Of a stretch of 32,000 nt of DNA, positions 1 to 20,547 are shown one piece after another. Where the stretch lies: NCBI RefSeq assembly GCF_000012925.1, contig NC_007517.1, positions 2,070,001 through 2,102,000 on the forward strand, in the 5' to 3' direction. The DNA is from Geobacter metallireducens GS-15. Its GTDB lineage: Bacteria > Desulfobacterota > Desulfuromonadia > Geobacterales > Geobacteraceae. A program made the position numbers and the translations under genes. How positions within the stretch are numbered: the stretch's first letter is position 1; each line of letters starts with the position of its first letter. The notes under the pieces were generated by a model, which was not told the origin of the DNA, did no database searches, and saw only the letters and a list, made by a program, of their open reading frames with translations.

Positions 1-166
1 GCGAGGGGGAAAGCGCCCCGTAGACCAGTTTCAGGAGGGTCGATTTTCCCGCACCGGAAGGGCCGGTAACAAAAACAAAGTCCCCTTTGGGGACCTTGAG
101 GGAAACGTCGTTCAAAGCTGCCGCGTCGCTCTGATACGACAGGAAAACATTGTGGAACTGAATCAT
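1..166 (-). CDS. ftsE: FtsE-like ABC-transporter ATPase, N-terminal fragment (gene continues beyond left edge)
   Basis: Hand translation of the minus strand from ATG 166-164 gives [55 protein letters not shown]. It has Walker [10 protein letters not shown] followed by LLKL, a layout typical of FtsE. An AAGAGGA SD-like motif lies just upstream. It is absent from the ORF track because it is truncated. Confidence 0.75.
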
Positions 167-217: not shown

Positions 218-622
218 TTACCATTCTTTATACGGTTTCCCGTCAGTTCCCACCAGATCAGAACCACTATGGACATCGTAGACATTACCGGTTTCCTGTT
301 TACCGGCGTCCGCCCCGCCAGTCGGAGCCGGGGGGGCGATAGTTTCCCAGCTGTCAGTTTTCCTGGTAAAGGGATCCGTCGGTAAACCGTGGATATATTT
401 CTTGTCGACAAGATCTTGAAGCGTATCGGGATACTTCCCCTGGTCGGCGTAAAATTGGTCTATGCTGCTTCGGATGCTGTAGAGGTTCTCCCGCAACACT
501 GCCTCTCTCGCCTTGATGAGGCTCCACTTGTAGCTCGGCACAGCAATGGTGGCCAGGATGCCGATGATGGTCACAACAATCATCAACTCCACAAGCGTAA
601 AGCCTTTGCTTTTTGTTAGCAT
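218..622 (-). CDS. gspG: GspG-family pseudopilin (type II secretion major pseudopilin-like)
   Basis: Prepilin signature MLTKSKG|FTLVELMIVVTIIGILA: short basic leader, Gly-1, Phe+1, Glu+5, hydrophobic helix. There is no Cys pair. The tail VYDVHSGSDLVGTDGKPYKEW is GspG-like. The track ORF starts at GTG 640, but ATG 622 gives a canonical 7-residue leader. The start is uncertain by 18 nt. Confidence 0.85.
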   Translation of the reverse strand: MLTKSKGFTLVELMIVVTIIGILATIAVPSYKWSLIKAREAVLRENLYSIRSSIDQFYADQGKYPDTLQDLVDKKYIHGLPTDPFTRKTDSWETIAPPAPTGGADAGKQETGNVYDVHSGSDLVGTDGKPYKEW

Positions 623-641
623 TTTTCGGAAGCTCGGCACG

Positions 642-1157
642 TTACCAGTCCTTGTATTTTGTCCCGTCGATGGCCGTACCCTCGCTCAGGGAATAGACGT
701 CATACACGTCCGAATTGTCCCACGTCGTGCTATCGGGCTCGTCCTTGTAGGAACGCAGACCCCATTCGGGCTTTTCCCCTGACGCGGGACGGTTGAAGGG
801 ATCTACGGGAATCCTCCGGAGGAACTTTTTCTTGGTCGACTTCGCTTCGCCGCCGAAATCGGTACCCGTAACCAGAACCTCCAGGGTTTCGGGATATCCT
901 GTCTCGTTCAGGATCTGTTTCCCCTTGTGGGCGTCGTCATAGGCTTTTTTGTACTCGTCTATGGCAGTGCGGATCTCCCTGAGGGATCTGCGCAGCTCAA
1001 GCTCCTTGTTCCGCTTGACGGTCATCTGGGTAAAGGGAACTATCACTGTCGCCAGTATACCGAGAATGGTTACAGTCATTATGAGCTCAATAAAGCTCAA
1101 TCCCTTACGGTTTCGTATATACCTCACTGTCGAGACACCGATAAACTTCACGCTCAC
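642..1157 (-). CDS. Second GspG-like pseudopilin (paralog, longer leader and Lys-rich insert)
   Basis: RNRKG|LSFIELIMTVTILGILATVIV has Gly-1 and Glu+5. GYPETL and IPVDPF motifs are present. The tail DVYDVYSLSEGTAIDGTKYKDW is paralogous to that of 218-622. GTG 1157 overlaps the secretin stop (GTGA). An in-frame GTG at codon 11 would give a 9-residue leader, so the start is uncertain. Confidence 0.8.
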   Translation of the reverse strand: MSVKFIGVSTVRYIRNRKGLSFIELIMTVTILGILATVIVPFTQMTVKRNKELELRRSLREIRTAIDEYKKAYDDAHKGKQILNETGYPETLEVLVTGTDFGGEAKSTKKKFLRRIPVDPFNRPASGEKPEWGLRSYKDEPDSTTWDNSDVYDVYSLSEGTAIDGTKYKDW

Positions 1158-3739
1158 TTAACTTCGACAACCGTATTGTAGGGTACGACATCAATCGGCT
1201 TATTTGCCTGGTCAGTGAAGTTCACGCTCTGGAGGCCGAGGCTGGCCGGCCCCTTGTTCTTGGCAGTGAAGGTCGCGGTGAGGAGCGAACCGGCACCGTC
1301 GATGCCTTCGGCACCGGTTCGCGCCAATGTAATGGTCACCCTTCCCTTCGCCTTATCTACCTGGGCGTTGAAGCTGGTCGGCTTGCCATCCCGATTCAGG
1401 AACGTCCCTTCGACTGCCCCCACATAATCTATGAAAATCGGATCGTAGATAAGGACAAAGGGCGCCTTAAGGAGGCCCTTGACGTCGGAGACCCTGATCT
1501 CGACCTTGAACTGGGAGCCGAGATTCACAGCTGCCGGTGCAGATATATTAAGGCTTCCGCGCACGGCTGGCGCAGGTGCTGCAGCAACAGGGACGGCAGA
1601 CGCTGCTGCCACCGTCGCGGCAGGAGCCGCAGGAGAAGCCGGTACGGGAAGGGGCGCAACCGCCTGGGATTGCGCTGTGGACGGCGGGGCAGGCTGCTGA
1701 CCTGGAGCCGGCGCCGCCGATTGTTTGACTTCCGGGGAAGTCGTTGTCTGCGGGGCTGCCGTGGGTGCCGGACTACCGGGAACGGGTTGTAGAGGCGCAA
1801 CTCTCTGGGCAGGTGCAGAGACAGAAGCAGGAACCGGTGCAGGCGATGCTGCCGGCTGCTTGACGGTTTTGGGTTGGCCGATGGCAAACTCCGGCTCAAG
1901 CTCAAATGAAGCGAATGGTTTGACAACCGAGGGATCGTCCTCCTTGCCCGACCAGAAGGAAACAAGATCAGGCTCGGGAACGGTGACGGAACGGACCAGA
2001 CGCGGAGTAATGGCGAGAATCAGTTCACGCTTCTGGTTATCGTTGGAGTTGTTGGATAGAAGCGGGCCAATGATGGGGATGTCACCCAGCAAAAAGATTT
2101 TCTGCTTTCCCTTCTGCTTGTTGTCTTCAATCAATCCACCAATGACACTTGTTTCTCCATCCTTGAGGTTCAAGACCGTATCGAGGTTACGGGTTCCGAT
2201 GGTTACGACCGTTGTCGCAGAGTCCGTTCCGCCCACTGTCTGCTTATCGATAATCGAACTGACCTCAAGTCCCAGCTTGATAGAGACCTCGTTATTGAGC
2301 ATGATGGTCGGTTCAGCGTTCAATTTGACGCCGACATCCACGTACTGGACGTTCACACTGAAGCCGCCGGTTGTGCCGGTTGTTGACGTGGTTGTAATCG
2401 GCACGCGGGTACCAACGGTGAACTTGGATTTTTCCCGATTCTTGACCCTGATTTTCGGATTGGCAAGCACCTCCGCGTTGGTAATGCTCTTGCCAAAACT
2501 GTACGAGGCACTGGGGACCGTCATAAATCCGCTGTAACCGTTCCATGAGAACGTCTGCAACAACTCACTCCCAGCTGTTCCCTGTATAGTAGTTCCTGTG
2601 CTTGAACTCACCGATGCCCTTGAAAATGTATCATTCAGGAACCCCCCGCCCGGTGTCTGGGTATTCAGGGACACGGCATATTTGCTCAGGGCGAGGCCAA
2701 AGTTCTCTATGTTCCGTTTCGACACCTCGATGACCTCAACGTCCAGCAGCACCTCGGCATCGGGAACATCATTGGCTTCGAGAATCTTGCCCGCCACATC
2801 GACCAGTTCAGACGTATCACGCACAACAATAGCATTCAACTCTTCGTTAACGTAAACCTTGCGAACCTGAAGCATCGTCCGGAGAAGGTTCACCGCCTTC
2901 TTGGCATCGAGGGTGTTCAGGAAAAACGTCTTGACGACCAGATCTTCATACTGCTTTGATTTCTCGGGTGTTTTAGGAAAGATGAGTATGGTGCTCTCGT
3001 TCAGCACTTTCTTACCGAGCTTGTTCATGTTGGTCAACAGGTCGAGGGCCTGCTGGAAATTTGCATTTTCCAGATAAATCGTTACTTTTTGGTCCTTGAT
3101 TGTGTCATCAAAGATAAAGTTGATTCCGGAAAGTTGGGTAACTATGTAGAAGACGTCTTTCAGGTTTGCGTCTTTGAATTTCAGGGTAATTGGCTTTGTG
3201 GACTTCAGATTCAGCTCATACCCTTCCAGTCGGGTTTTTTTTGTGCTCAACAGACGCTCAAGGGCTTCCTTTGCCTCTTTGTTTTGCCCGTCGAGGTCAA
3301 GTGCCTTGCGATAGGCCTGGAGTGCTTCTCTTGGTTTGTTACCCCGTTCAAAATCCTGTCCTTCTTTGAAATAGGTTCTCGAATTCTTTTGGCGAACGAG
3401 CTTGTCGCTCTCCTGTTTCGCCCGTTGAAGCGACGGATCGAGGGCAACTGCTGCCTGGTACTCGACAAGCGCTGCATCGTAATTCTTGAGGGCAATGAAC
3501 TCATCTCCCTTGCTCAGATGCCGAAGCGCCGCTTCCTCGCTCGTCTTGAGGAGCCTCATGCGGTATTCGTTCATCTCCGGATTGGATGCGACCGCCTCGG
3601 AATACTTGATGACAGCCTCGTCGAGCTTTCCTTCCCGCTCAAGCCGCTCTCCCTTGCTGAATGCAGTTAGTCCGGCCCCACACCCTGACAGGAAAGCAAA
3701 AAAGGACAAGAAAGCTATTATCTTGAAGATGATCCTCAT
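1154..3739 (-). CDS. Secretin (GspD/PilQ family) lipoprotein with N-terminal TPR module, C-terminal Pro/Ala-rich linker and cohesin-like domain
   Basis: 861 aa. Lipobox FLSGC (Cys20). About 150 aa of TPR-like repeats (EAVIKYSEAVASNPEMNEY, YDAALVEYQAAVALDPS, REALQAYRKALDLDGQN). Two secretin-N type domains. Secretin core ending GDIPIIGPLLSN...RELILAITPRLV. Then a 106-aa P/A/S/T/Q linker and a 134-aa cohesin-like end. AAGGAG SD lies 8 nt upstream of ATG 3739. Confidence 0.9.
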   Translation of the reverse strand: MRIIFKIIAFLSFFAFLSGCGAGLTAFSKGERLEREGKLDEAVIKYSEAVASNPEMNEYRMRLLKTSEEAALRHLSKGDEFIALKNYDAALVEYQAAVALDPSLQRAKQESDKLVRQKNSRTYFKEGQDFERGNKPREALQAYRKALDLDGQNKEAKEALERLLSTKKTRLEGYELNLKSTKPITLKFKDANLKDVFYIVTQLSGINFIFDDTIKDQKVTIYLENANFQQALDLLTNMNKLGKKVLNESTILIFPKTPEKSKQYEDLVVKTFFLNTLDAKKAVNLLRTMLQVRKVYVNEELNAIVVRDTSELVDVAGKILEANDVPDAEVLLDVEVIEVSKRNIENFGLALSKYAVSLNTQTPGGGFLNDTFSRASVSSSTGTTIQGTAGSELLQTFSWNGYSGFMTVPSASYSFGKSITNAEVLANPKIRVKNREKSKFTVGTRVPITTTSTTGTTGGFSVNVQYVDVGVKLNAEPTIMLNNEVSIKLGLEVSSIIDKQTVGGTDSATTVVTIGTRNLDTVLNLKDGETSVIGGLIEDNKQKGKQKIFLLGDIPIIGPLLSNNSNDNQKRELILAITPRLVRSVTVPEPDLVSFWSGKEDDPSVVKPFASFELEPEFAIGQPKTVKQPAASPAPVPASVSAPAQRVAPLQPVPGSPAPTAAPQTTTSPEVKQSAAPAPGQQPAPPSTAQSQAVAPLPVPASPAAPAATVAAASAVPVAAAPAPAVRGSLNISAPAAVNLGSQFKVEIRVSDVKGLLKAPFVLIYDPIFIDYVGAVEGTFLNRDGKPTSFNAQVDKAKGRVTITLARTGAEGIDGAGSLLTATFTAKNKGPASLGLQSVNFTDQANKPIDVVPYNTVVEVK

Positions 3740-3767
3740 GTATGCGGCTCCTTAAACCATCGGACGT

Positions 3768-4382
3768 TCATCGTATCTGGCCGGCGAGAGGCCGGTTCTC
3801 GACAAGGGGAATCACCATCTCGCTTCCGTCGGTAAGAGAGCGGATTGACAGCGCCTCATCGGTGATGGTTGTCGCTTCGTAGTTCCCGGCAATTTTGTCG
3901 CCCTGGCGTACCAGGATAATCTCCTTGTCACGGGCAAGGAAGATGGTTTTGTGGTTATCCTTCTTGAGAAACCCCAGGAAGGTGAATTTTGCCATGTCCC
4001 GCACCACCTGCGGCGGTTGCGGTGCGACCGGCATCGGGGGCGGCAGCGCCACTGGAGCTGCAGGCGGAGGAGGAAGCGGAACGGCCTTCGGCAAGGTCAA
4101 CGGCAACGGACGCGATTGCTGCGTTTCGCCGCGGAAAATAGGACGGAATATATTTCGTCGAAAACCGGCAAACCGGTTTGAAGTACATTCAAGAAGATCA
4201 AGCCTGAGTTTTCTATCGTCGGTTGCAGCCGCTCCGTTAGGTTTTGGGGAACGGCTGACCTTCGTCGGGGGGGATGTCACCTTCGATACCGTCTGCTGAC
4301 ACGGCATTCTGATGTAGCTCACGATGGCGGCGACCACGAGCACCACAAGGAGAATGGAAAGAATGAGCCTCTGACGGTTCAT
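3768..4382 (-). CDS. PilP/GspC-HR-like bitopic protein with proline-rich spacer
   Basis: ATG 4382 overlaps the upstream stop (ATGA). The product starts MNRQRLILSILLVVLVVAAIV (one TM). Pro-rich PLPPPPAAPVALPPPMPVAPQPP follows. The C-terminal beta-domain FLGFLKKDNHKTIFLARDKEIILVRQGDKIAGNYE resembles PilP. The track ORF extension to 4496 overlaps the previous gene. Confidence 0.6.
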   Translation of the reverse strand: MNRQRLILSILLVVLVVAAIVSYIRMPCQQTVSKVTSPPTKVSRSPKPNGAAATDDRKLRLDLLECTSNRFAGFRRNIFRPIFRGETQQSRPLPLTLPKAVPLPPPPAAPVALPPPMPVAPQPPQVVRDMAKFTFLGFLKKDNHKTIFLARDKEIILVRQGDKIAGNYEATTITDEALSIRSLTDGSEMVIPLVENRPLAGQIR

Positions 4383-4924
4383 TTCCCCTCCGGACGCAGA
4401 TAGGCGGAAAGTTGCATCTTGAGAGAAACCGCCTCCTCGATCATGCTGGTGTTTGAGAGGGAAATCGAGTCTATCGTCAAAAGACCTCCGTGACACTGAA
4501 GATCGGAAATGAAACTCTTTATGCCGGCGTATTGGCCATCGAGACTCATTGTCACACCATAGACGACCAGATTTGCCTCCTTCTGGGCCTCGGGTTTATA
4601 GGTGATTCCCTTGACCTTCAACCCATTGTTGGCAGCTATTTCAAAAACTTCCATCATCTGCCGGGTAAAATCCCGCTTCAGAGGTATACGCTCCTGAAAC
4701 GCTGCAAGGTCGGCTGTCCCCTGACGATAAATCGTCCCTAGGTCCCCACCACCCGTCACGAGACGACGCTTCTCAGTCCATTCATTCTGGAGCTTGACGA
4801 GTTTCGGCTCCTGAACCAGCTGGGAGTACATCACGATCCCCATATTCACCAGAATGAGAACGAGGATCACGGCAATTGACATCCGCTTGGCCTTAAGGAC
4901 CTCCAGAAACTGATTTCTGGTCAT
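4379..4924 (-). CDS. PilO/GspM-like bitopic inner-membrane protein
   Basis: ATG 4924 overlaps the upstream stop (ATGA). MTRNQFLEVLKAKRMSIAVILVLILVNMGIV gives a short cytoplasmic N-terminus and a single TM. A coiled-coil-like segment and a C-terminal alpha/beta region follow. Its position between the PilN-like and PilP-like genes fits PilO. Confidence 0.65.
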   Translation of the reverse strand: MTRNQFLEVLKAKRMSIAVILVLILVNMGIVMYSQLVQEPKLVKLQNEWTEKRRLVTGGGDLGTIYRQGTADLAAFQERIPLKRDFTRQMMEVFEIAANNGLKVKGITYKPEAQKEANLVVYGVTMSLDGQYAGIKSFISDLQCHGGLLTIDSISLSNTSMIEEAVSLKMQLSAYLRPEGK

Positions 4925-5460
4925 AGGAAATCCACCTTGCACGTAACGGTGAATCCCACGCCCCTCTGATCAGTTCCCTCTTTGACTTCTGTCTGGCTCT
5001 GGAGAAACACGTCGGAAAACCGGGGGGCTCCTTCGAGATTTTCCACAAAGGTCCTCAAATTGCGAAATTCCTTCGCAGTTCCAGCGAGCGTCAGGGTCCC
5101 CTCTTTGAGTTTCGGCTCTATGGATGAAAGAGTAACGCCATCGGGCACTACAGACTCCAACTGATCGAGCAGAAGGAGCCAATTAAGCCCTCTTTTCTTG
5201 AGGATTCCATTGGCGACTGAAATTTTCTTTATGATTCCCTGATACTCCTGCTCTGTCACTCCCTTGGCCGATGTCGCAAATCGTTCCTGAAGTTTCGCCA
5301 GTTCACCTTCAAGTTGCTTTGCCTGACCGGCGTTCGTGGCGACCCCTTTGACAACGAAGAACAGGACCAGCACCAGCAGGGCGACAGCAGCGGCCAATGC
5401 AGCATTCAATTTCCGCGTATCAATAAAATAGCGAGTCGAAAGATTGATCTTCAGATCCAT
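4921..5460 (-). CDS. PilN-like bitopic inner-membrane protein
   Basis: ATG 5460 overlaps the PilM-like stop by 1 nt (TGATG). The N-terminus MDLKINLSTRYF resembles the conserved PilN INLLP motif that binds PilM. TM AALAAAVALLVLVLFFVV and a periplasmic domain follow. The track extension to 5589 overlaps the upstream gene. Confidence 0.7.
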   Translation of the reverse strand: MDLKINLSTRYFIDTRKLNAALAAAVALLVLVLFFVVKGVATNAGQAKQLEGELAKLQERFATSAKGVTEQEYQGIIKKISVANGILKKRGLNWLLLLDQLESVVPDGVTLSSIEPKLKEGTLTLAGTAKEFRNLRTFVENLEGAPRFSDVFLQSQTEVKEGTDQRGVGFTVTCKVDFL

Positions 5461-6389
5461 CAGAGATTCCTCGTTGCAGCACCAAGGGCAGCTGCCAAGG
5501 AAGCCAATGGCACCCCACCACCCCCCACGGAAGAGGCCGGATTGCCAACGAACGTATCCGGCAAAAGCATGAAGGGCTCCAGACCACACGCTTCGGTAAT
5601 GACTGTCCTGAACAACTCACCATCCCCGGCGGGCGCCAGACAGAAGGCTTCGCGAAACTCCCGCCCAGGATTCTTGTCACGATAAAAAAGGAGCGAATTA
5701 TTGGTTTCCATGAAAACACGGTTCATATCAAGATCAGAGCCCGGCAGTTCCTTTGCCCGGTAGAACTCAAGTACATCTTGATGAAATATAAGTATGCTCA
5801 ACACATTATCATGACATGCAACAAACAGGGAACTTTCGCTCATGGCTATCCGCGGAGAGAAAAGCCGATAGAGGTTAAATGAGGTGAAATCGATGTGAGC
5901 CGGCTGAATTCCCGCTTCGGCCAGCAGTTCTTCGTACTGGCTGACCACTTGCCGTGCAATGATTGCCACAAGAACCGATATCTCGCCGTTCTCTTTCTCT
6001 CGCAGCAGCTGATAATCAAGATGCATTTCGTTTACGTCGAAAGGAAGACTCTTTTTGAGCTTCCACCGGATAATGTCATATCCCTCGTCACGATTCTTAA
6101 AGCGAGTCTCCAGGTCAAGGATGACCACCCGCCCGCAGGCGTCGGGCAGTGACACCGAGACAAGGCCGGTACGGTGAAGAAGCTTCAGGTACGCCTCTTT
6201 CACCTCCTTCACGAAAAGAGCCGGCTCCACAACGTTCGGCTCCCGATGAACGAGTCTAACGGTTCCGGCCGGGAACTGGGCGGTTTCACAGGCGAGCAGC
6301 TTCGGACGGTTCTTGCTTCCGCCAACCGCTGCCATCCTGACCCCATGCTGGGTTATCTCCATCCCCACTGCATTACGGGAAAAAAACAT
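5460..6389 (-). CDS. PilM-like (or GspL cytoplasmic-domain-like) actin-fold assembly protein
   Basis: 309 aa, soluble. N-terminal VGMEITQHGVRMAAVGG is typical of PilM-type actin/HSP70-fold proteins. It sits directly upstream of the PilN-like gene and is coupled to it. AAAGG SD lies 5 nt before ATG 6389. Confidence 0.7.
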   Translation of the reverse strand: MFFSRNAVGMEITQHGVRMAAVGGSKNRPKLLACETAQFPAGTVRLVHREPNVVEPALFVKEVKEAYLKLLHRTGLVSVSLPDACGRVVILDLETRFKNRDEGYDIIRWKLKKSLPFDVNEMHLDYQLLREKENGEISVLVAIIARQVVSQYEELLAEAGIQPAHIDFTSFNLYRLFSPRIAMSESSLFVACHDNVLSILIFHQDVLEFYRAKELPGSDLDMNRVFMETNNSLLFYRDKNPGREFREAFCLAPAGDGELFRTVITEACGLEPFMLLPDTFVGNPASSVGGGGVPLASLAAALGAATRNL

Positions 6390-6421
6390 GAAAGCCTTTC
6401 ATCGATAAAGTGGACCAAGCG

Positions 6422-8143
6422 CTATTCAACAAAGGTGACGCGATTGATTTCCCGCAGAGACGTCTCTCCGGCCAAGACCTTTTCCACAGCCGACTCGCGA
6501 AGGAAAACCGTTCCCGCTTCCCGGGCGGCCACCTTGAGTTGGGCAGCCGGCGTCTTAGACATGATCAGTTCACGGATGTGGTCGTTGAGATCAAGCAGCT
6601 CAATTATGGCGGAGCGACCGCGATAACCAGTGCCGTTACACTCGTCGCACCCGCGCGCATCGAAAAAGGTTACGCTGCGACACTGCTCCGGGTCAAGTCC
6701 TGATTCAATGAGTACCGAATCAGGATGCACAGTCGGCAACTTGCAGTGGGAGCAAAGCTTGCGCACCAATCGCTGGGCCATGACGCAGTTCAGGCAGGAA
6801 ACGAAGTTGTAGGGGTCGATACCCATGTGAATAAAACGACCGAGAACGTCAAACACGTTATTGGCGTGTACCGTGGTGAATACCAAGTGTCCCGTCAGTG
6901 CGGATTGCACGGCGATCTGAGCAGTTTCAGGATCGCGGATCTCCCCCACCATGATCTTGTCAGGGTCGTGCCGAAGGATTGAGCGCAATCCCCGGGCAAA
7001 GGTCAGCCCCTTCTTCTCGTTGACCGGAATCTGGACAATCCCCCGCAAGGCATACTCAACAGGATCCTCGATGGTGATGATCTTTTCCTCACCGGTATGA
7101 ATCTCGGTAAGAGCAGCATACAGGGTCGTGGTCTTGCCTGACCCGGTTGGTCCGGTTACTAGCACCATCCCGTAGGGCTCGCGGACCTTTTTCCGCAGTC
7201 TTTTCATCTCCCGCGGGTTCATGCCAAGGGTTTCAAGGGTCAGCCCCTTGAGATCGGAGGCGATGCTCTCCTTGTCGAGGATACGGATAACAGCGTCTTC
7301 TCCGAAGGCGCTCGGCATGATAGAAACGCGGAAATCGATGGCCTTGTCGGCAATCCGGACCTTGAAACGTCCATCCTGGGGAATGCGCCGCTCTGAAATG
7401 TCGAGCTCGCTCATGACCTTGAGGCGTGAGATGATCGGTGCCTGGAAATGGACGTCGAGTGTCTCCGTTGCTCGGTAGAGAACCCCATCGATCCGGTATT
7501 TGATGACAACCCCTTCCAACGCCGTTTCGATATGGATATCGCTTGCCCTTCGCGTCAGGGCATCCATGACGGTAGAGTTGACCAGCTTAATGATCGGGCT
7601 CGTATCGGCGGAGATCTTCTCCATGGAGAGGATCTCCTCACCCGTCTCGTTCTCCCGCACGAGTTGGAGCATGAAGTCCTCGGAAACTTCCTTGAGGACC
7701 CGGCTCGTGGCCTCTCCTTTTTTCAGGATGGCGGAAATCGCCGATTCAGTGGCCAATTTAATGATAAGAGGCCGATCGAGGAGCAGTTCAAGCTCGTCAA
7801 GTTTTATGACATCGGTGGGATCAGAGATGAGGATGACAAGGCTGTTGTCCTGCTCCTCCAAGGGAACAAATCGGAACCGGTAAATGGCATCGGGAGGAAG
7901 CGCGTTGAGAATTGCCTCGTTGGGGCGCAGTCCCCGGGCATCGACGTACTCCAAGCCGAATTGCTCCGCCAGGGACTCCGCCAGGGACTCTTCGGTAATG
8001 AAGCCTTCCTCGACACATATCTCCCCGAAACGCTTTGCGGTCGCCTTCAGTCTTTCGACGACGAAGGGAAGGTCATCGGTTCTCAATGACCCGCGTTCGA
8101 TAAGAATTTCGCCGATATTCTTCCTTTTAAAGACATGCTTCAT
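6422..8143 (-). CDS. gspE: GspE/PilB-family secretion ATPase with N-terminal MshEN-like domain
   Basis: 573 aa. Walker [10 protein letters not shown]. The conserved VGEIRD and TGHLVFTTVHAN boxes are present, as is the tetracysteine zinc motif CSHC...CDEC. The N-terminal tandem 24-residue repeats resemble the MshEN/T2SSE_N domain. Confidence 0.95.
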   Translation of the reverse strand: MKHVFKRKNIGEILIERGSLRTDDLPFVVERLKATAKRFGEICVEEGFITEESLAESLAEQFGLEYVDARGLRPNEAILNALPPDAIYRFRFVPLEEQDNSLVILISDPTDVIKLDELELLLDRPLIIKLATESAISAILKKGEATSRVLKEVSEDFMLQLVRENETGEEILSMEKISADTSPIIKLVNSTVMDALTRRASDIHIETALEGVVIKYRIDGVLYRATETLDVHFQAPIISRLKVMSELDISERRIPQDGRFKVRIADKAIDFRVSIMPSAFGEDAVIRILDKESIASDLKGLTLETLGMNPREMKRLRKKVREPYGMVLVTGPTGSGKTTTLYAALTEIHTGEEKIITIEDPVEYALRGIVQIPVNEKKGLTFARGLRSILRHDPDKIMVGEIRDPETAQIAVQSALTGHLVFTTVHANNVFDVLGRFIHMGIDPYNFVSCLNCVMAQRLVRKLCSHCKLPTVHPDSVLIESGLDPEQCRSVTFFDARGCDECNGTGYRGRSAIIELLDLNDHIRELIMSKTPAAQLKVAAREAGTVFLRESAVEKVLAGETSLREINRVTFVE

Positions 8144-8195
8144 AATGGTTTGATCCGATCAGGCCCTGTGCCCGCAATTAGTCTCCGACCCTTGA

Positions 8196-9404
8196 TTATC
8201 CAACTGTCCCAGCGATCTTGAATACCGGAAGATACATGGTAATGATGATGACGCCGACCACCAGCCCCATGACAATCATAATGGCGGGTTCGATGGCAGT
8301 GGTAAGGAGATGAAGCCGTGCATCGATATCACTTTCAAAATATTCCGAGATGTCGCTCAACATCTCCTCCAGAGATCCGGTCGTCTCTCCTACCCCGAGC
8401 ATGCGGAGCGCCAGAGGTGGCATGAATTTTACCGACTCGATGGCATTGGAGAGGCTCATCCCCTCCTCCACCTTAACAACCGCCTGGAGAAGCCTTCTTT
8501 CGAGAACCACATTATTAAGCGTGCCGACCGACATCTTCAGCGACTCCACGATAGGAATACCGCTGCCGATGACCGTTGCGAGAGTGCGGGTAAAGGAAGC
8601 AACGGCAAACTTCGAGAAAACCTCACCAATAAAAGGGAGGCGAATCCTGAGATCGTCAACCCAGAAGCGCCCCCGCTCGGTTGCGGCCCATCGACGCAGG
8701 GCCATGACAACGGCACCGATCAATGCAATAACAAAGAGAATGTAGTGTTTGAGTGTTGAGGAGAACGAGATCAAAATCCTTGTGGGGAGCGGCAATTGCG
8801 AACCGGCATCGGCATAAACCTGGCTGAAGGTCGGGACCACGTACACCAGCAGGAAAGCAATCGCGATGGTTGCCACGGTAACAAGAATCGATGGATAGAC
8901 GAGGGCTGAGACGAATCTTTTCCGCACTTCCTCTACCCTCTTCAGAAAAGCGATGTAACGCCTGATGGTAAGGGGAAGGTCTCCTGTCCGTTCGCCGGCC
9001 CTGACGGAAGCAACATAGAGATGGGGAAACGCCTTAGGATACTTTTCCAAGGCATCGGAAAGAGCCATGCCTCCTTTGACGTTCTCGCGGACTTCCTTGA
9101 GAATATCCGCGAGTTGCCCTCGATCAAAGCGCTCTAGAATGGTATCCAGTGCTTGTATGATTGGTAGGCCGGCCTTGATGAGAACCAGCAGTTCCTGGTT
9201 CAAGGTCAGAAGGGTCTTGTTGTCCACCCTCCTATTGCGTCCGCCCCTTTCCCACAAAAACTGCAACGGCTTTTTTTTTACTTCAAAGACAAAAAAACCC
9301 TGTTCCTCCAGACTGACGCGAAGGATTTCGGGATTTACCGCTTCAAATTCCTTGACAATGATTCTGCCTTCTGTGGAGCCAAGCTTGCAAGTGTAGAGAG
9401 CCAT
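8196..9404 (-). CDS. gspF: GspF/PilC-family inner-membrane platform protein
   Basis: 402 aa. Duplicated T2SSF-type cytoplasmic domains are separated by hydrophobic segments. The sequence ends in a final TM, IEPAIMIVMGLVVGVIIITMYLPVFKI. ATG start at 9404. Confidence 0.95.
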   Translation of the reverse strand: MALYTCKLGSTEGRIIVKEFEAVNPEILRVSLEEQGFFVFEVKKKPLQFLWERGGRNRRVDNKTLLTLNQELLVLIKAGLPIIQALDTILERFDRGQLADILKEVRENVKGGMALSDALEKYPKAFPHLYVASVRAGERTGDLPLTIRRYIAFLKRVEEVRKRFVSALVYPSILVTVATIAIAFLLVYVVPTFSQVYADAGSQLPLPTRILISFSSTLKHYILFVIALIGAVVMALRRWAATERGRFWVDDLRIRLPFIGEVFSKFAVASFTRTLATVIGSGIPIVESLKMSVGTLNNVVLERRLLQAVVKVEEGMSLSNAIESVKFMPPLALRMLGVGETTGSLEEMLSDISEYFESDIDARLHLLTTAIEPAIMIVMGLVVGVIIITMYLPVFKIAGTVG

Positions 9405-9505
9405 AGGTCTTTCTTAACACAACAGAATCAAAACATAAACAAAAAACCAAATAGATACGCAGTTTTAGCGTATTCTTAACATTCCGTGGCATCAACTATT
9501 GCAGT

Positions 9506-9934
9506 TCATTTTTCGTGACATGATAAACAGATTTTCGACAGGGGAAGACGCAGATGATAACGCTCCTGTTCCTGATTGCCAGGATTCTTAACGTGCATGG
9601 CATGGCAGGTGATGGCACAGGTAATGGTCCCGTCCTCAGCCAAAGGGAGACTTTCTCGGTTCATCTCCGGTTTCATGCCGATGCCGTGGCCGAACTCCAT
9701 GCCGTGACACTGCCTGCAGAGAGCCACCTGGTTGGTGAGGAGCTGTCTTTTGGTTGCATTAGCAACAAAAAAACTTCCCAGTTTTTCCTTGGGGAGTACA
9801 TGGCAGACCCCACAACTCTCGGGAGAGGTGTGGGGATTGACTGCGCCATCCGGAACCTCCGGCGCGGCAATCCCTGTTCCCGAGAGAACAAGCACCGCAA
9901 CGCAAGCCCCAATTCCCTGCTTCACGAATGACAT
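9506..9934 (-). CDS. Small periplasmic/secreted c-type cytochrome, 3 CXXCH plus 1 CX3CH
   Basis: ATG 9934 has a GAGGTG SD 8 nt upstream. Signal peptide MSFVKQGIGACVAVLVLSGTGIA. Heme motifs are CGVCH, CRQCH and CLSCH, plus CAITCH. The track ORF extension to 10003 overlaps the upstream cytochrome gene. Confidence 0.85.
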   Translation of the reverse strand: MSFVKQGIGACVAVLVLSGTGIAAPEVPDGAVNPHTSPESCGVCHVLPKEKLGSFFVANATKRQLLTNQVALCRQCHGMEFGHGIGMKPEMNRESLPLAEDGTITCAITCHAMHVKNPGNQEQERYHLRLPLSKICLSCHEK

Positions 9935-9954
9935 CGCCTGGCACCTCTGTGGGT

Positions 9955-11058
9955 CTAGTAAACCTTGGGATTGTGATCGACACCATGACAGGAAAGGTAG
10001 CATTCGCCCCGGAATGTCGAAATACCCTTCTCTACAAACTTGAGTTGCCCCTGAGAGTTTGGTGACACTACTGATTTATTGAAGGTAATCAGATACTTAT
10101 TATCCGGACTCCCGTGGGAGCTGTGACAGGTATAGCATGAAGTTCCTGAGTCGGCACCGTTTCCACCTCCTCTTCCTTGAATGTGCAAGGCATGGTAACG
10201 GAAGCTCTCGTTTCCGAGAATGCTCGTACGATCGTGACAACGGTAGCAGAGAGCATAGGTATAGGGTGTTTCCGACTGCTTGTCGCTTGTCGAATAATGG
10301 TCCACGAGGATATGTTCATACTGCGAACCATGGGGCCCTCGTGGGGACTCTGGATTCTCGCTCCCATGGCAGTCACCGCATGAAATTGTAGCTACTTCAC
10401 CCGCATTAATTTTCTTTTCTTTGTACGGTTTCAGAAGGCTGATGACCGCCGTATTCTTCCCCTCCCCCTCCACGGGATGAAAGGAAGGATTGGTCAGTGC
10501 AAACTCCATCCGTTTGTTTACTTGCCTCCCTGGCAGGTTGGCACTTTCACCGTGACACTTGTAACAAAGTTCATATTCCTTGTTTACGGACGAAATTACG
10601 TTACCCACCCGCTTTCCCCTGATTCCTGCGAACTTGTTCTCGCTGGTAACGTAATGGGGATTATGGCAATCAACGCACTCGGCGTGGCGTGGGATACGGG
10701 AATCCGTCTCAGGGAGAATCTCGTTGCTTTGGTGAATCCCTCGGGCATCAAACGCCGGATGGTGATAAGTTTTGAGGAACTCCGCTTCAATATTTTTTCT
10801 ATTGCTTCCGGCGGGAGCAAAATTTTTCGGCATATTTTTATATGATTGCTTCAACCTTGAAGGGTCACCATGACAGATTATACAAGTTTCAGGACCACCG
10901 CCCGACTTGAAATTGAAGCTCAGGTGGCAGGTGGAACAACCGGTGGACACCTTATTGGTATCAAGGTGAACTGCATCTTTTGGATAGGATGCAGCGAAAG
11001 GCGCAGGTGACATAAACAACAAAAACGCCAATGTAAGTATAAGATTTTTTATCGCCAT
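9955..11058 (-). CDS. Multiheme c-type cytochrome, 7 CXXCH plus 1 CX3CH
   Basis: 367 aa. Signal peptide MAIKNLILTLAFLLFMSPAPFAA. Motifs are CSTCH, CIICH, CVDCH, CYKCH, CGDCH, CYRCH and CYTCH, plus a terminal CYLSCH. Confidence 0.9.
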   Translation of the reverse strand: MAIKNLILTLAFLLFMSPAPFAASYPKDAVHLDTNKVSTGCSTCHLSFNFKSGGGPETCIICHGDPSRLKQSYKNMPKNFAPAGSNRKNIEAEFLKTYHHPAFDARGIHQSNEILPETDSRIPRHAECVDCHNPHYVTSENKFAGIRGKRVGNVISSVNKEYELCYKCHGESANLPGRQVNKRMEFALTNPSFHPVEGEGKNTAVISLLKPYKEKKINAGEVATISCGDCHGSENPESPRGPHGSQYEHILVDHYSTSDKQSETPYTYALCYRCHDRTSILGNESFRYHALHIQGRGGGNGADSGTSCYTCHSSHGSPDNKYLITFNKSVVSPNSQGQLKFVEKGISTFRGECYLSCHGVDHNPKVY

Positions 11059-11068
11059 TGTTGCTTAC

Positions 11069-11833
11069 TCATGGATTATTCGTGAAATTGTGACAGTTAG
11101 TGCACACCGAGTCGTGGGCATTTGTTGCGGACGTTCCGTCAAGAACCCAGAAAGGCGTGGAAGGATCGTTATACTGCGTCTGATGGGGATCATGACAGGT
11201 TATGCACTGCATCCTGTTTTCTCTATCCAGACGAATTTTAGCATTGGTTGGAAGTTGGTACGAATTACCAGGTCCCTCCAAGACATTGAGCCGATCACGG
11301 ACAGAGGCGTTATACACAAATGAAACCGGATGGTGGGAATTGGTTATCTTTGTTCGGTTAAAAACATGGGTCCCCGACATAACCGTATTGACGTTGTTGT
11401 TCACCTCAATGGCGTCACCGTTCAAAACGGCTCCCAGTGCAGTGACGCCGTCGTGGCAACTTAGACAGAGGCGCGATGAACCATTGGGCTCAGACTTGTA
11501 ATCGCTTGAGGTCTTCGCCGCAGGGTCGGTGTGGATGGCAAGAGTGTTGGATGAATAATGGCCGAAGGTCTGGGTGGTATCGTTACGGTTCCAAAGGACC
11601 GTTTGAGGTTTGGCGTTGTGGGGGGTGTGGCAGAAAATGCAGATTTGCTTGCCCCTTGGATCGGAAGCGTTCGTAGCTTTGTAGTTCACGCCGGTATTGC
11701 TGAACGAGAGGTTATGTTTGTTGCCGCCTTCCGTGAACTTGGGGCCTTGAGCACCAAAACCGGCGCCTGTATCGAAAAAAACAACAATCAGAAACAATAA
11801 AACCGGAAAAAGGTTGTCTGTTTTAACCATCAT
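11069..11833 (-). CDS. Tetraheme c-type cytochrome (doubled-CXXCH style)
   Basis: 254 aa. Hydrophobic signal LFPVLLFLIVVFF. Motifs are CIFCHTPH, CLSCHDG, CITCHDPH and CTNCH. ATG 11833 overlaps the NHL gene stop (ATGA). Confidence 0.9.
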   Translation of the reverse strand: MMVKTDNLFPVLLFLIVVFFDTGAGFGAQGPKFTEGGNKHNLSFSNTGVNYKATNASDPRGKQICIFCHTPHNAKPQTVLWNRNDTTQTFGHYSSNTLAIHTDPAAKTSSDYKSEPNGSSRLCLSCHDGVTALGAVLNGDAIEVNNNVNTVMSGTHVFNRTKITNSHHPVSFVYNASVRDRLNVLEGPGNSYQLPTNAKIRLDRENRMQCITCHDPHQTQYNDPSTPFWVLDGTSATNAHDSVCTNCHNFTNNP

Positions 11834-12891
11834 GGCGTGCCTTGCCTCAGGTACTCAAATATCTGGATACGTTTGTTATACGTGTCGGCAACAAAGATCC
11901 GGTCATGCTTGTCTATGAATAATCCGCTCGGGAGATAGAACTCGCCCGGCCCGTTACCAGGCTTTCCCACGAAAAGGAGGAGTTTCCCTTCCTGATCAAA
12001 TATCTGAAAATTATCGAATGAGGCATCCACAGCATAAACATGAAGTTCGCTGTCCACGGCCACCCCCCGCGGTCGCGCGAATGAACCGGGGGCATCGCCG
12101 ACTTCGCCGAAACTCCTAAGGAAATTTCCATTACGATCATATTTTTTTATAGTGAAGTTCATGGAATCAGTTACGTAGGTGTTTCCTTCCCTATCCACCG
12201 CTACGTTGGACGGCAAGCTGAGTGGCTCGCCACTCCCGTCGCGGGGAAACTCCCCACGATAATGTCCATCCTTGTCAAACTTCTTCAATTTATGTGCCAA
12301 CACATCAACCACATAAACATCACCGTTACCGGCAACAGCAATCCCGGCCGGCCTTTTGAACGTGGTCTCTCCGTTGCCAAACTCCCGAAGGTACTCTCCC
12401 TGGCGCGAAAAAACGTATACCCTGGCATTGATTGAATCAGACACCAGCACATTACCGTTCGAATCAAAGGCCACTCCAACGGGACTTGCGAGCGGCTCGT
12501 CCCCGGCTTGGCGGATGTAGAAAACTTCACGATTATTCAGATCGTAGCACTGTACTACCCGTGTAGAGGAATCCGCAACGCAGAGGAGGGAGCCACCGTC
12601 ACTGGCTAATCCGTATGGCGTCATCAGGGGTATCATCACCCGCTCTTCCCCGGTAACGATTTGCCAAAGGCGCCCAACCTTACTCTGAATCGGCACAATC
12701 TGTTCTGGTCCGGTTATTTCGCGGAGGAATCGGATTCGGGGCGGATTAGGCGGCGGAGGCCAGACAAGGTCAACTGCAGGGTCATGGAGAGCAATGGGGC
12801 TGGTGCCTACTCCAGCACAACCCAGAAGGATGAGACCGAGCAAGAGATATAATAAGTACCGTACAGAACACGAATGAAGAACAGACTTCAT
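11830..12891 (-). CDS. NHL-repeat six-bladed beta-propeller lipoprotein
   Basis: ATG 12891 overlaps the stop of the small upstream ORF (ATGA). It gives the lipoprotein signal MKSVLHSCSVRYLLYLLLGLILLGC. There are six repeats of the type P.GVAVD..GNVYV.D..N.RI..FD: PVGVAFDSNGNVLVSD, PAGIAVAGNGDVYVVD, PSNVAVDREGNTYVTD, PRGVAVDSELHVYAVD, PSGLFIDKHDRIFVAD, plus a degenerate first blade. Confidence 0.85.
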   Translation of the reverse strand: MKSVLHSCSVRYLLYLLLGLILLGCAGVGTSPIALHDPAVDLVWPPPPNPPRIRFLREITGPEQIVPIQSKVGRLWQIVTGEERVMIPLMTPYGLASDGGSLLCVADSSTRVVQCYDLNNREVFYIRQAGDEPLASPVGVAFDSNGNVLVSDSINARVYVFSRQGEYLREFGNGETTFKRPAGIAVAGNGDVYVVDVLAHKLKKFDKDGHYRGEFPRDGSGEPLSLPSNVAVDREGNTYVTDSMNFTIKKYDRNGNFLRSFGEVGDAPGSFARPRGVAVDSELHVYAVDASFDNFQIFDQEGKLLLFVGKPGNGPGEFYLPSGLFIDKHDRIFVADTYNKRIQIFEYLRQGTP

Positions 12892-13073
12892 GCCAGCATC
12901 ATCCCCACAATCCAGATGGTAAAAAAGACGGCCATCGCTCCCCCCCACCCTGCAGCGGCCTTACCGTTCATTGTCCCGCGTTTTGGGAATGCCTTAACAA
13001 TAAGAACCATAGTCGAGGCTATCCATCCCCACAAACCAACCTGACAGATAACTGCCCAGCCATCATGCAGCAT
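12888..13073 (-). CDS. Small two-TM membrane protein (61 aa), function unknown
   Basis: Two hydrophobic helices, WAVICQVGLWGWIASTMVLIV and GWGGAMAVFFTIWIVGMMLA. An AGGGGGGA SD-like run lies upstream of ATG 13073. It overlaps the GT2 stop by 11 nt and the NHL start by 4 nt, so it is embedded in a coupled chain. I recognise no family. Confidence 0.45.
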   Translation of the reverse strand: MLHDGWAVICQVGLWGWIASTMVLIVKAFPKRGTMNGKAAAGWGGAMAVFFTIWIVGMMLA

Positions 13074-13803
13074 GGCGGTCCCCCCTGCGAGTCAGCTTTT
13101 TGACCAATGAACCTAGCTTTAACTTCCAGACCATCAAGACGGCTTCCCGGACAATCTTCTTCGACATTTTGGAACTTCCCGCATGACGGTCAATGAAGAT
13201 AATCGGAATCTCGCCGACACGGAAACCTCGCTCGACGCAACGGTAGTTCATCTCAATCTGGAATGAGTATCCGTCGGACCGTATCGTATCCAAGTCGACG
13301 GATTCAATAACTCGACGTCGGAAGCACTTGAAGCCGCTGGTGCAGTCTCGAAGCGCAAGCCCGGTTACGAATCGTGTGTAGACACTTGCGAAGTAGCTGA
13401 GCATCAGTCGTCTGATGGGCCAATTGACAACACTTACGCCGTTCAGATAGCGAGATCCAACCACAACGTCATACTTGTCCGTAGCGGCAAGGAGCGCTGG
13501 AATAGTTGCCGGGTCGTGGGAAAAGTCGGCATCCATTTCGATGATGAAATCGGCCCCATCCCTCAAAGCCACTCTGAATCCGTCACAATAGGCTGAGCCA
13601 AGCCCCATTTTACCAGAACGGCGGAGCACGTGGATACGTGGATTGTCACTACTCATCCGGGCAGCGATTTCTCCCGTGCCGTCCGGAGAATTATCATCCA
13701 CCACCAGGACATGTATGTTGTCACGCTGAGCCAGTATCTTCTCCATAAGTGCAACGATATTGTCACTCTCGTTATAGGTTGGTACGACGACATATACCTT
13801 CAC
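13063..13803 (-). CDS. Family-2 glycosyltransferase, polyprenol-phosphate mannose/glucose synthase (DPM1/Ppm1)-like
   Basis: VVPTYNESDNI, VVDDNSPDGT and EMDADFSHDP motifs indicate a GT-A fold. I chose GTG 13803 because GGAGGGAG lies 8 nt upstream. The track start is GTG 13821, 6 codons longer. Confidence 0.88.
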   Translation of the reverse strand: MKVYVVVPTYNESDNIVALMEKILAQRDNIHVLVVDDNSPDGTGEIAARMSSDNPRIHVLRRSGKMGLGSAYCDGFRVALRDGADFIIEMDADFSHDPATIPALLAATDKYDVVVGSRYLNGVSVVNWPIRRLMLSYFASVYTRFVTGLALRDCTSGFKCFRRRVIESVDLDTIRSDGYSFQIEMNYRCVERGFRVGEIPIIFIDRHAGSSKMSKKIVREAVLMVWKLKLGSLVKKLTRRGDRHAA

Positions 13804-13973
13804 CTGATTTTCTCCCTCCACAAAATACGCTGGTTCAGATACGTTATTCCCATGCTGCCGCCGCTAGCAAACCGGACGCCCATACAAATAAATTTTGTTT
13901 GCAGGATAGAGAATTATGTTTCAGCAGGTCAACTGAATGAAAATAACACAGGATCTATATAAAAATAAGCAAC

Positions 13974-14011: not shown

Positions 14012-14088
<77 letters not shown>

Positions 14089-14149
14089 AAACTATTCAAC
14101 TGTTTACTTCAGTAATGCCGTACTGAATAAGTCTCCTTACGACATTATG

Positions 14150-14225
14150 TGGTGGGCGAAGAGGGGATCGAACCCCCGACATCCAGCTTGTAAGGCTGGC
14201 GCTCTCCCAGCTGAGCTATTCGCCC
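14150..14225 (-). tRNA. tRNA-Val (TAC), encoded CCA
   Basis: The reverse complement is GGGCGAATAGCTCAGCTGGGAGAGCGCCAGCCTTACAAGCTGGATGTCGGGGGTTCGATCCCCTCTTCGCCCACCA. The anticodon loop is CTTACAA. Confidence 0.95.
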
Positions 14226-14232
14226 TTATATT

Positions 14233-14309
<77 letters not shown>

Positions 14310-20155: not shown

Positions 20156-20238
20156 TGGTGCGAGAGAGGGGAGTCGAACCCCTACGGTTGCCCGCTGGAT
20201 CCTAAGTCCAGTGCGTCTGCCAATTCCGCCACTCTCGC
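20156..20238 (-). tRNA. tRNA-Leu (TAG), encoded CCA
   Basis: The reverse complement is GCGAGAGTGGCGGAATTGGCAGACGCACTGGACTTAGGATCCAGCGGGCAACCGTAGGGGTTCGACTCCCCTCTCTCGCACCA. It has a long variable arm and anticodon loop CTTAGGA. Confidence 0.93.
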
Positions 20239-20297
20239 AGATGTACGAACTACCCACATACGAAGAAGCCCCGTTTATCACGGGGCTTTGCATTAAT

Positions 20298-20375
20298 TGG
20301 GGTGGCTAGTGGGATTTGAACCCACGAATGCATGAGTCACAGTCATGTGTGTTAGACCCCTTCACCATAGCCACC
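20298..20375 (-). tRNA. tRNA-His (GTG) with G-1, encoded CCA
   Basis: The reverse complement is GGTGGCTATGGTGAAGGGGTCTAACACACATGACTGTGACTCATGCATTCGTGGGTTCAAATCCCACTAGCCACCCCA. The anticodon loop is CTGTGAC. Confidence 0.93.
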
Positions 20376-20387
20376 ATAATTTGGGTT

Positions 20388-20464
<77 letters not shown>

Positions 20465-20467
20465 AGA

Positions 20468-20547
<80 letters not shown>

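Follow-up and report, generated by a model that had tools for sequence, protein, structure and literature searches.

Architecture of the block

We analysed a 32,000-nucleotide stretch of the Geobacter metallireducens GS-15 chromosome (NC_007517.1, positions 2,070,001 to 2,102,000; hereafter the window, whose own numbering is used throughout), in which the minus strand between 218 and 13803 carries 15 co-oriented open reading frames (ORFs). The block corresponds to the locus Gmet_1857 to about Gmet_1871 and joins a type II secretion system (T2SS) of the Pul/Oxp kind to an upstream cassette for an NHL-propeller lipoprotein and multiheme cytochromes, two of which appear to be the halves of one 12-heme protein related to the filament cytochrome OmcE. 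All the ORFs lay where a first-pass annotation of the letters had put them, and its overlaps and gaps were reproduced when the junction lengths were computed with the most plausible start codons. In sequence searches, PulQ and the product of Gmet_1868 each found a G. metallireducens protein with 100% identity. Locus tags and names are available in the supplement of an mLife 2022 paper (Gmet_1857 oxpG, 1858 pulG, 1859 secretin, 1860 pulP, 1861-1863 pilO/N/M, 1864 pilB, 1865 pilC, 1867 "8 hemes" and 1869 "NHL repeat protein"), the main text of which describes Gmet_1868 as having "4 hemes". The features, in the direction of transcription and all on the minus strand, are as follows.

13903..13932, minus strand: sigma-70-like promoter TTGACC-18-TATCCT heading the block
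13063..13803, minus strand: GT2, putative polyprenyl-phosphate glycosyltransferase, DPM1/ArnC/AglJ-like (Glycos_transf_2, E=2e-32)
12888..13073, minus strand: orf61, two-helix membrane protein of 61 aa, conserved partner of GT2 (conserved in 56 loci)
11830..12891, minus strand: NHL six-bladed beta-propeller lipoprotein, Gmet_1869 (NHL, E=7e-30)
11069..11833, minus strand: tetraheme cytochrome Gmet_1868 (cyt4), assigned by sequence to the OmcE family, 4 CxxCH
9955..11058, minus strand: octaheme cytochrome Gmet_1867 (cyt7), 7 CxxCH and 1 CxxxCH
9506..9934, minus strand: small cytochrome with Sec signal (cyt3; tag probably Gmet_1866), 3 CxxCH and 1 CxxxCH
9405..9505, minus strand: AT-rich spacer of 101 nt, with a weak stem-loop and T-run at 9473-9455
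8196..9404, minus strand: pulF (Gmet_1865), inner-membrane platform (T2SSF, E=2e-52, two repeats)
6422..8143, minus strand: pulE (Gmet_1864), secretion ATPase with N-terminal MshEN and cyclic di-GMP (c-di-GMP) motif (T2SSE, E=8e-132; MshEN, E=4e-14)
5460..6389, minus strand: pulM (Gmet_1863), PilM-like actin-fold protein (PilM_2, E=1e-7; TIGR01175, E=1e-19, below cut-off)
4921..5460, minus strand: pulN (Gmet_1862), PilN-like (PilN, E=1e-18)
4379..4924, minus strand: pulO (Gmet_1861), PilO/GspM-like (PilO, E=3e-7; T2SSM_b, E=7e-4)
3768..4382, minus strand: pulP (Gmet_1860), PilP-like membrane protein, likely ATG at 4382
1154..3739, minus strand: pulQ (Gmet_1859), liposecretin (Secretin, E=4e-38)
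642..1157, minus strand: pulG (Gmet_1858), second pseudopilin (N_methyl, E=1e-4; GspG model 36.3 bits, cut-off 88.85)
218..640, minus strand: oxpG (Gmet_1857), prepilin-type pseudopilin (N_methyl, E=6e-9; GspG equivalog 48.8 bits, cut-off 88.85)
1..166, minus strand: start of ftsE (MIQFHNVF...GPSGAGKST), 51 nt beyond the oxpG stop

The genes are tightly packed. GT2, which likely starts at a GTG at 13803 preceded by GGAGG, overlaps orf61 by 11 nt, and orf61/NHL and NHL/cyt4 overlap by 4 nt each; gaps of 10 nt (cyt4-cyt7), 20 nt (cyt7-cyt3) and 101 nt (cyt3-pulF) follow, and within the Pul genes the overlaps are of 1 nt (pulM/pulN) or 4 nt (pulN/pulO, pulO/pulP and pulQ/pulG). A check with profile hidden Markov models bore out the earlier domain calls for GT2, NHL, the cytochromes, T2SSF/T2SSE, PilM/N/O, the secretin with TPR and cohesin, and N_methyl. 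The PilP-like pulP is conserved at 33-91% identity in all Pul loci, and neither the Pfam nor the NCBIfam scan returned a match for it; orf61 likewise had no family match in these scans.

The secretion genes are the already named, atypical Pul/Oxp T2SS, in the order pulF-E-M-N-O-P-Q-pulG-oxpG followed by ftsE. Aklujkar et al. 2012 (PMC3543383) annotated this order, continuing into ftsE-ftsX, in Pelobacter carbinolicus; the Pul system, present there in two copies, is named as "required for secretion of OmpB", and the gene for TklG, a third pseudopilin, lies elsewhere. The names pulGPQF have also been applied to G. sulfurreducens, again with OmpB, a multicopper protein, as the sole substrate cited, and, according to papers citing Mehta et al. 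2006, the oxpG gene and its T2SS are needed in that species for Fe(III)-oxide reduction and OmpB export. Since a contig of G. sulfurreducens type carries the whole arrangement (tig-clpP-clpX-lon-GT2-61aa-NHL-cyt-cyt-cyt-pulF...secretin(cohesin)-pulG, with 58-86% protein identity to the window and the same flanks), the first-pass annotation was right about an Oxp system in a lon-clpXP-tig neighbourhood, and the P. carbinolicus annotation agrees. Gene order and names are identical to those of the G. sulfurreducens Pul/Oxp system, and the machine itself shows no difference. Novelty therefore cannot be claimed for the T2SS, because the system and the two main cytochromes have already been named and studied genetically. 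Within the searchable papers of the cited Pul/Oxp literature, the adjacent cytochrome, NHL and GT2 genes, the cohesin and the MshEN motif go undiscussed, and our literature search found no main-text mention of Gmet_1857, 1859, 1864, 1865, 1866 or 1869.

The description of the set as a mixture of T2SS and type IV pilus parts was accurate: PilM/N/O/P-like proteins stand beside GspE/GspF-type ones and pseudopilins, and the whole conforms to neither canonical type. Secretin, ATPase and platform, the core shared with the canonical Gsp T2SS, are present but score below the NCBIfam equivalog cut-offs of the Gsp and Pil models, and both pseudopilins are under the GspG cut-off. In contrast with that T2SS, the block has no GspC/L/M: no match to GspC or GspL was found in it, and PilM_2, PilN, PilO/T2SSM_b-like and PilP-like ORFs fill that place. 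The PilMNOP-like genes are shared with the type IVa pilus, but the secretin carries TPR and STN rather than AMIN domains, there is no PilT, and the pseudopilins are short; OxpG matched solved chains over its N-terminal helix alone (Geobacter PilA-N 7TGG and GspG 5WDA being the nearest). As first reported, no minor pseudopilin (GspH-K) or prepilin peptidase gene lies within the 32-kb window.

The cytochromes and their linkage to the pul genes

The heme motifs of the three cytochromes (4, 7+1 and 3+1, the additional ones being CxxxCH) are invariant across 36, 36 and 22 orthologues of cyt4, cyt7 and cyt3, respectively. Gmet_1868 matched the OmcE filament subunit (PDB 7TFS, E=2.3e-17) and, over residues 39-249, that is, at full length, the OmcE of D. 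soudanensis (PDB 9YUQ, E=1e-10). All 36 orthologues keep its four CxxCH motifs and the four distal histidines by which OmcE homologues are recognised (H40, H72, H168 and H217), and the histidine of an N-terminal KH(N/D)LS motif is conserved together with four other heme-ligand histidines. By its sequence, then, Gmet_1868 is a member of the OmcE family. A ninth invariant histidine adjoins H168 (H167-H168), so that the Pul-linked subfamily reads HHP whereas OmcE and most relatives read DHP. An AlphaFold2 model of Gmet_1868, built without hemes on a 32-sequence alignment, was unusable (mean predicted local distance difference test score, pLDDT, of 48.7). Gmet_1867 carries a Pfam match of the MtrC/MtrF domain II/IV type (E=5e-11). 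The NHL lipoprotein, whose lipobox cysteine is invariant in all 36 orthologues, shows 31% identity to a propeller lipoprotein encoded in a canonical OmcE cluster (metagenome locus L088).

When metagenomes were scanned with an OmcE fragment, 70 OmcE-like loci were obtained, and 10 of them contained a single ORF with 10 to 12 hemes whose N-terminus was cyt4-like and whose C-terminus was colinear with Gmet_1867. In the L113 fusion, residues 48-212 align with cyt4 (36% identity, E=2e-30) and residues 258-540 with cyt7 (33%, E=3e-44). With E<=0.001 as the limit, a profile search of 1.84 billion representatives yielded 4463 members of the family; of the top 150, 57 were at least 450 aa long, and 46 of the 57 were colinear fusions, most often with 12 hemes. 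Gmet_1868 thus corresponds to about the N-terminal third, and Gmet_1867 to about the C-terminal two-thirds, of the fused proteins and, because such colinear single polypeptides exist elsewhere, the alignments identify the pair as the split form of one 12-heme cytochrome. We know of no published description of this fused 12-heme family (OmcE-like plus octaheme). The split fits the reports that each of the two genes is needed for Fe(III)-oxide reduction: papers that cite Smith et al. 2013 describe Gmet_1868 as a four-heme cytochrome of the outer surface on which that process depends, and Gmet_1867 figures in a published list of Fe(III)-oxide genes. Gmet_1868 has also been described as required for direct interspecies electron transfer with G. 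sulfurreducens (mLife 2022), in which species GSU1785, GSU1786 and GSU1787 are cytochromes; GSU1787, GSU1786, GSU1785 and GSU1788 are the counterparts there of Gmet_1868, 1867, 1866 and 1869, respectively. On a separate short contig (L162), an NHL gene, a cyt4-like and a cyt7-like gene are followed by a 250-aa OmcE-like cytochrome (2501-3253; 38% identity to G. sulfurreducens OmcE), so that a split pair and a free OmcE-type subunit stand side by side; the contig is too short to show which gene comes next.

The cassette resembles the OmcE cluster in its tetraheme cytochrome, which has the four CxxCH motifs and all four distal histidines of OmcE, and in having an adjacent propeller lipoprotein, further multiheme cytochromes and a GT2 gene nearby. 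It differs in that there is no large beta-barrel gene, a T2SS adjoins it, HHP replaces DHP, and the tetraheme protein is the split-off N-terminal module of a 12-heme family; the chromosomal site is also another (between lon-tRNA and pul, as against purHDE/resB/ccsB to ffh). With the loci of the fused 12-heme proteins (L092, L095, L097, L106, L113 and L114) it shares an NHL gene followed by the cytochrome, colinearity from cyt4 to cyt7 at 33-36% identity and a total of 12 hemes. Unlike the two polypeptides of the window, however, the fused genes are preceded by the NHL lipoprotein plus a heme-less ORF of 570-680 aa that ends in phenylalanine, and they have no T2SS within 10 kb. We regard these heme-less ORFs, which had no family in the Pfam scan, as putative beta-barrels. 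Homologues of them and of a 746-aa ORF beside OmcE in L088 occur in 19 of the 70 metagenome loci; the window has none, nor has any of the 86 loci that were retrieved by way of a Pul or cassette gene. Conversely, pulF, pulE and pulQ were found within 10 kb in none of the 70 OmcE-like or fused metagenome loci.

To count the linkage, one genome per species was scanned, which gave 460 secretin relatives, of which the best 80 were kept and the 64 with enough upstream DNA were scored. The order GT2-orf61-NHL-cyt4-cyt7(-cyt3)-pulF was found in 36, always with the cassette directly upstream of pulF, and cyt3 was present in 21 of these and absent from 15. In another 21 loci GT2-orf61 abutted pulF without the cassette, and in the remaining 7 unrelated genes lay upstream of pulF. 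The physical linkage that had been proposed between the cytochrome and secretion genes is therefore non-random and recurrent, the same block being found in dozens of species. What had been called a single upstream module is really GT2-orf61 (57 of the 64 loci) plus an optional NHL-cytochrome cassette, and the notion of a "dedicated" secretion system does not hold, as the T2SS persists without the cassette in 28 loci and OmpB is its sole cited substrate. In a tree of PulE plus PulF, each of the two deep branches holds cassette-bearing lineages scattered among cassette-less ones, so the simplest reading of the tree is an old insertion followed by many losses.

Wherever the gene downstream of a split cyt4/cyt7 cassette could be read, it was pulF. 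This was so in the loci of four relatives with cyt4 identity as low as 43%, one of which (L082) has a quite different upstream flank, and in four more distant loci (L158-L161), where PulF is about 50% identical to that of the window and PulE 60-62% identical in the two loci that reach that far; the eight added look-ups together extend down to 35-45% cyt4 identity and 50% PulF identity. In two of the distant loci a SurA-like isomerase replaces GT2-orf61. Such a peptidyl-prolyl isomerase gene lies directly upstream of NHL in these two (L159, 4-1053; L161, 207-1160) and directly upstream of GT2 in L086 (6059-7027); prolyl-isomerase chaperones have been tied to the assembly of OmcS nanowires.

Accessory domains and control regions

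PulQ is composed of a lipobox, TPR, STN/N0, Secretin_N and Secretin domains and, beyond a Pro/Ala-rich linker of some 130 aa, a cohesin at the C-terminus. This last domain (PF00963) reached E=3e-14 and 53.8 bits (cut-off 24.1) when the C-terminal 135 aa were scanned alone, and it was not reported in the whole-protein scan, probably because of the low-complexity linker. That linker (window 1600-2100, residues about 615-725), between secretin and cohesin, is rich in Pro, Ala, Ser and Thr. PF00963 was present in nearly all of the 120 best PulQ relatives, with matches reaching residue 861 in cassette-less loci. A Pfam scan confined to the 15 proteins found no dockerin, and neither a calcium-loop motif nor a dockerin that might partner the cohesin was found in the cassette proteins. 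The N-terminus of PulE passes the c-di-GMP motif model (NF053729, 42.4 bits, cut-off 38, residues 10-61), contains the tandem 24-residue motif RLGxx(L/V/I)(L/V/I)xxG...Q and aligns to the c-di-GMP-binding domains of Thermus PilF and Vibrio cholerae MshE; like MshE and the PilB/PilF-type ATPases (PDB 5HTL, 8PDK), PulE may bind c-di-GMP. The MshEN domain was found in the PulE of every Pul locus inspected. Both unusual domains singled out in the first-pass annotation are real, but their suggested tie to the electron-transfer genes was not sustained: a cassette-specific adaptation was rejected because cohesin and MshEN also occur in cassette-less Pul loci.

Upstream of GT2, a promoter of the form TTGAC(T/C)-N15-19-TAnnnT was found in 24 of 33 loci (0.5 expected in shuffled sequences), 54-127 nt before the GT2 start and often preceded by CCCTTTCCC. 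Of 66 loci, 52 had a stem-loop with a T-run and covarying stems (consensus AAACCACAGGC...GCCTGTGGTTTT) upstream of pulF; a TGTGGTA(T/A) box lay at a fixed -20 from the pulF ATG, in its strict form in 37 of the 66. Hairpin and box occur whether the upstream gene is cyt3, cyt7, orf61 or an unrelated one, and the hairpin is weak in G. metallireducens and strong in relatives. The element could be a terminator-promoter junction or a leader element. Its conservation implies that the pul genes have their own control region, and read-through from the cassette is uncertain. A scan of the whole window at the Rfam gathering thresholds returned only tRNAs, with no c-di-GMP or other riboswitch near the block, and sigma-54 consensus matches were no more frequent than in shuffled sequence, none being usefully placed.

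At the other end of the block, oxpG and ftsE are 51 nt apart, with an GGAAAGAGGA ribosome-binding site and no convincing terminator between them; on this account the ftsE genes, for a cell-division ATP-binding cassette transporter, may be co-transcribed with the T2SS. A terminator-like site downstream of oxpG, at window positions 98-76, was rejected, since it falls inside the ftsE ORF. The P. carbinolicus genome paper (PMC3543383) notes the proximity of ftsE to the Pul genes and offers no explanation. On the upstream flank of the block there are three tRNA genes and a strong terminator (14008-13972), and then lon, clpX, clpP and tig; the minus-strand tRNA genes form two clusters, three genes between lon and the GT2 promoter (14015-14309) and four upstream of tig (20159-20547).

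Proposed export of the cytochromes and alternative readings

We regard as solid the anatomy of the block, the identity of the T2SS, the assignment of the cytochromes to the OmcE family and to a split 12-heme protein, and the non-random linkage. What is already known is the T2SS; what is new is the kind of cytochrome involved and its association, in complementary fashion, with either a T2SS or a barrel. To explain that association we tentatively favour, with somewhat less than even confidence, export or anchoring of these cytochromes by the Pul T2SS, whose secretin would take over the part that the barrel plays in related clusters. Sec would carry the three cytochromes across the inner membrane, and they would acquire their heme in the periplasm. 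Gmet_1868 and Gmet_1867 would associate into one 12-heme unit, possibly with the aid of the NHL lipoprotein. This unit would then be moved to or through the outer membrane by the T2SS and would serve Fe(III)-oxide reduction and interspecies electron transfer at the surface, PulE being possibly tuned by c-di-GMP. There is a precedent in Shewanella oneidensis, where two decaheme cytochromes, MtrC and OmcA, reach the surface of the cell by way of the Gsp T2SS (Shi et al. 2008, as cited in PMC4282303). The translocation of folded, heme-loaded multiheme cytochromes for mineral reduction, shown there, would be the common feature; in contrast, the Shewanella system is a canonical GspC-N set that is not encoded beside its cytochromes, the cargoes are lipoproteins that dock on MtrAB, and they have no sequence relation to Gmet_1868.

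Several points weigh against this export reading. The link between the Pul T2SS and the cytochromes, while plausible, is drawn from the genes. The absence of the cassette from 28 of the 64 Pul loci, after many independent losses, means that the T2SS works without it; the system is a machine of general use, with OmpB as its one cited substrate, and not one reserved for the cassette. The pulF-upstream element, found in every architecture, argues for at least partly separate transcription. The linked loci probably come from one order, so that shared descent inflates the counts, and the heme-less ORFs are called barrels from their size, position, C-terminal phenylalanine and the description of OmcE clusters in a 2025 preprint (bioRxiv 10.1101/2025.10.22.684050). 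GSU1786, the G. sulfurreducens homologue, is classed as a periplasmic cytochrome in a 2024 survey, and the outer-membrane or surface label of Gmet_1868 may be partly a prediction. In one co-culture comparison (mLife 2022) Gmet_1857-1869 were all up, by 1.7- to 4.9-fold; we infer that it opposes the G. sulfurreducens and the M. acetivorans co-cultures, because for that pairing a 4.12-fold change of Gmet_1868 is quoted in the main text, and the shared direction is weak support since very many genes changed.

Many of these points would be expected if the neighbours were joined only by descent, the cassette having occupied a permissive slot upstream of pulF since a Geobacteraceae ancestor; this is the main alternative, which we consider rather unlikely. 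The T2SS would then export other proteins, such as OmpB, and the cytochromes would be periplasmic or would reach the surface through a porin-cytochrome complex or, in trans, through the barrel of an OmcE cluster. The many losses of the cassette, the hairpin and box that pulF keeps regardless of the upstream gene, the periplasmic listing of GSU1786, the single cited substrate and the presence of cohesin and MshEN in cassette-less loci all accord with this explanation. It sits less well with the constancy of the split cassette, which is beside pulF in all readable loci, even where the flank differs (L082) or GT2-orf61 is missing (L159 and L161), and with the pairing of the fused relatives with a putative barrel and never with Pul. 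Moreover, the deletion of oxpG in G. sulfurreducens, as cited, and those of Gmet_1867 and Gmet_1868 specifically impair Fe(III)-oxide reduction.

Two further explanations give the cytochromes other roles. Gmet_1868, being OmcE-like, might polymerise extracellularly, or might cap, initiate or stop OmcE filaments, with the T2SS as its assembly or export machine; we think this improbable. The full-length homology to two solved OmcE filament subunits speaks for it, as do the conserved KH(N/D)LS motif, the four other ligand histidines and the ninth invariant histidine; the preprint mentioned above considers an OmcE-like protein with four hemes and nine histidines an ideal filament stopper, its candidate being encoded away from the OmcE cluster. 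However, outside the subfamily the closest relatives of Gmet_1868 are N-terminal domains of 12-heme fusions and not free subunits, which argues for pairing with Gmet_1867 in a heterodimer and against a homopolymer; the ninth histidine adjoins a ligand histidine, and the structural model is of no help. It is more improbable still that the cassette proteins are not cargo at all but accessory parts or electron partners at the secretin, held for instance by the PulQ cohesin as a fixed outer-membrane complex. The cohesin is real, the NHL protein is a lipoprotein and the genes are tightly packed, but the 15 proteins include no dockerin-like domain, the cohesin is equally present in cassette-less loci, and the C-termini of secretins normally face the periplasm.

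Taken in its strongest form, export by the Pul T2SS would mean that in Geobacter and relatives an OmcE-related 12-heme cytochrome was split into two genes and swapped its barrel partner for a secretin-based T2SS, a history that we hold to be possible though doubtful. If true, Pul/Oxp would be the outer-membrane route of an OmcE-type cytochrome and, in two organisms amenable to genetics, the first export pathway of this class to be defined genetically, and it could account for the inability of oxpG mutants to reduce Fe(III) oxide. The 2025 preprint states that the secretion and assembly of extracellular, nanowire-type cytochromes "remains unanswered", and porin models and pilus- or T2SS-like export models are both under discussion. 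At this locus a complete T2SS lies beside an OmcE-family cytochrome whose role in Fe(III)-oxide reduction and interspecies electron transfer is known, and both can be deleted; the comparative rule (the split form with a T2SS, the fused form with a putative beta-barrel) can be checked genome-wide. Should the export link fail, what is left is a well-conserved neighbourhood around an already named secretion system.

The GT2 gene may also belong to the export scheme, possibly by supplying a lipid-linked sugar for the periplasmic glycosylation of exported proteins. Its best NCBIfam matches, all far below cut-off, were AglJ, PpgS, dolichyl-phosphate hexose transferase and ArnC. In the freshwater OmcE clusters of the same preprint there are GT2/4/39 genes, and OmcE is glycosylated. 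Given the resemblance of GT2 to lipid-phosphate transferases, the glycosylated OmcE and a neighbouring gene in L157, a role in glycosylating exported proteins, perhaps including the PulQ linker, is at most a reasonable guess; Pro/Ala/Ser/Thr-rich stretches are of the kind that is O-glycosylated in other bacteria. In L157 (2163-2804) a fused gene for a 599-aa 12-heme cyt4::cyt7 protein is followed by one for a multi-pass membrane protein that starts ...LNGRFLWDDHILIEKNP..., an N-terminus that by eye resembles PMT/TMTC-type O-mannosyltransferases and hints that the GT2 of the window feeds the glycosylation of the cytochromes.

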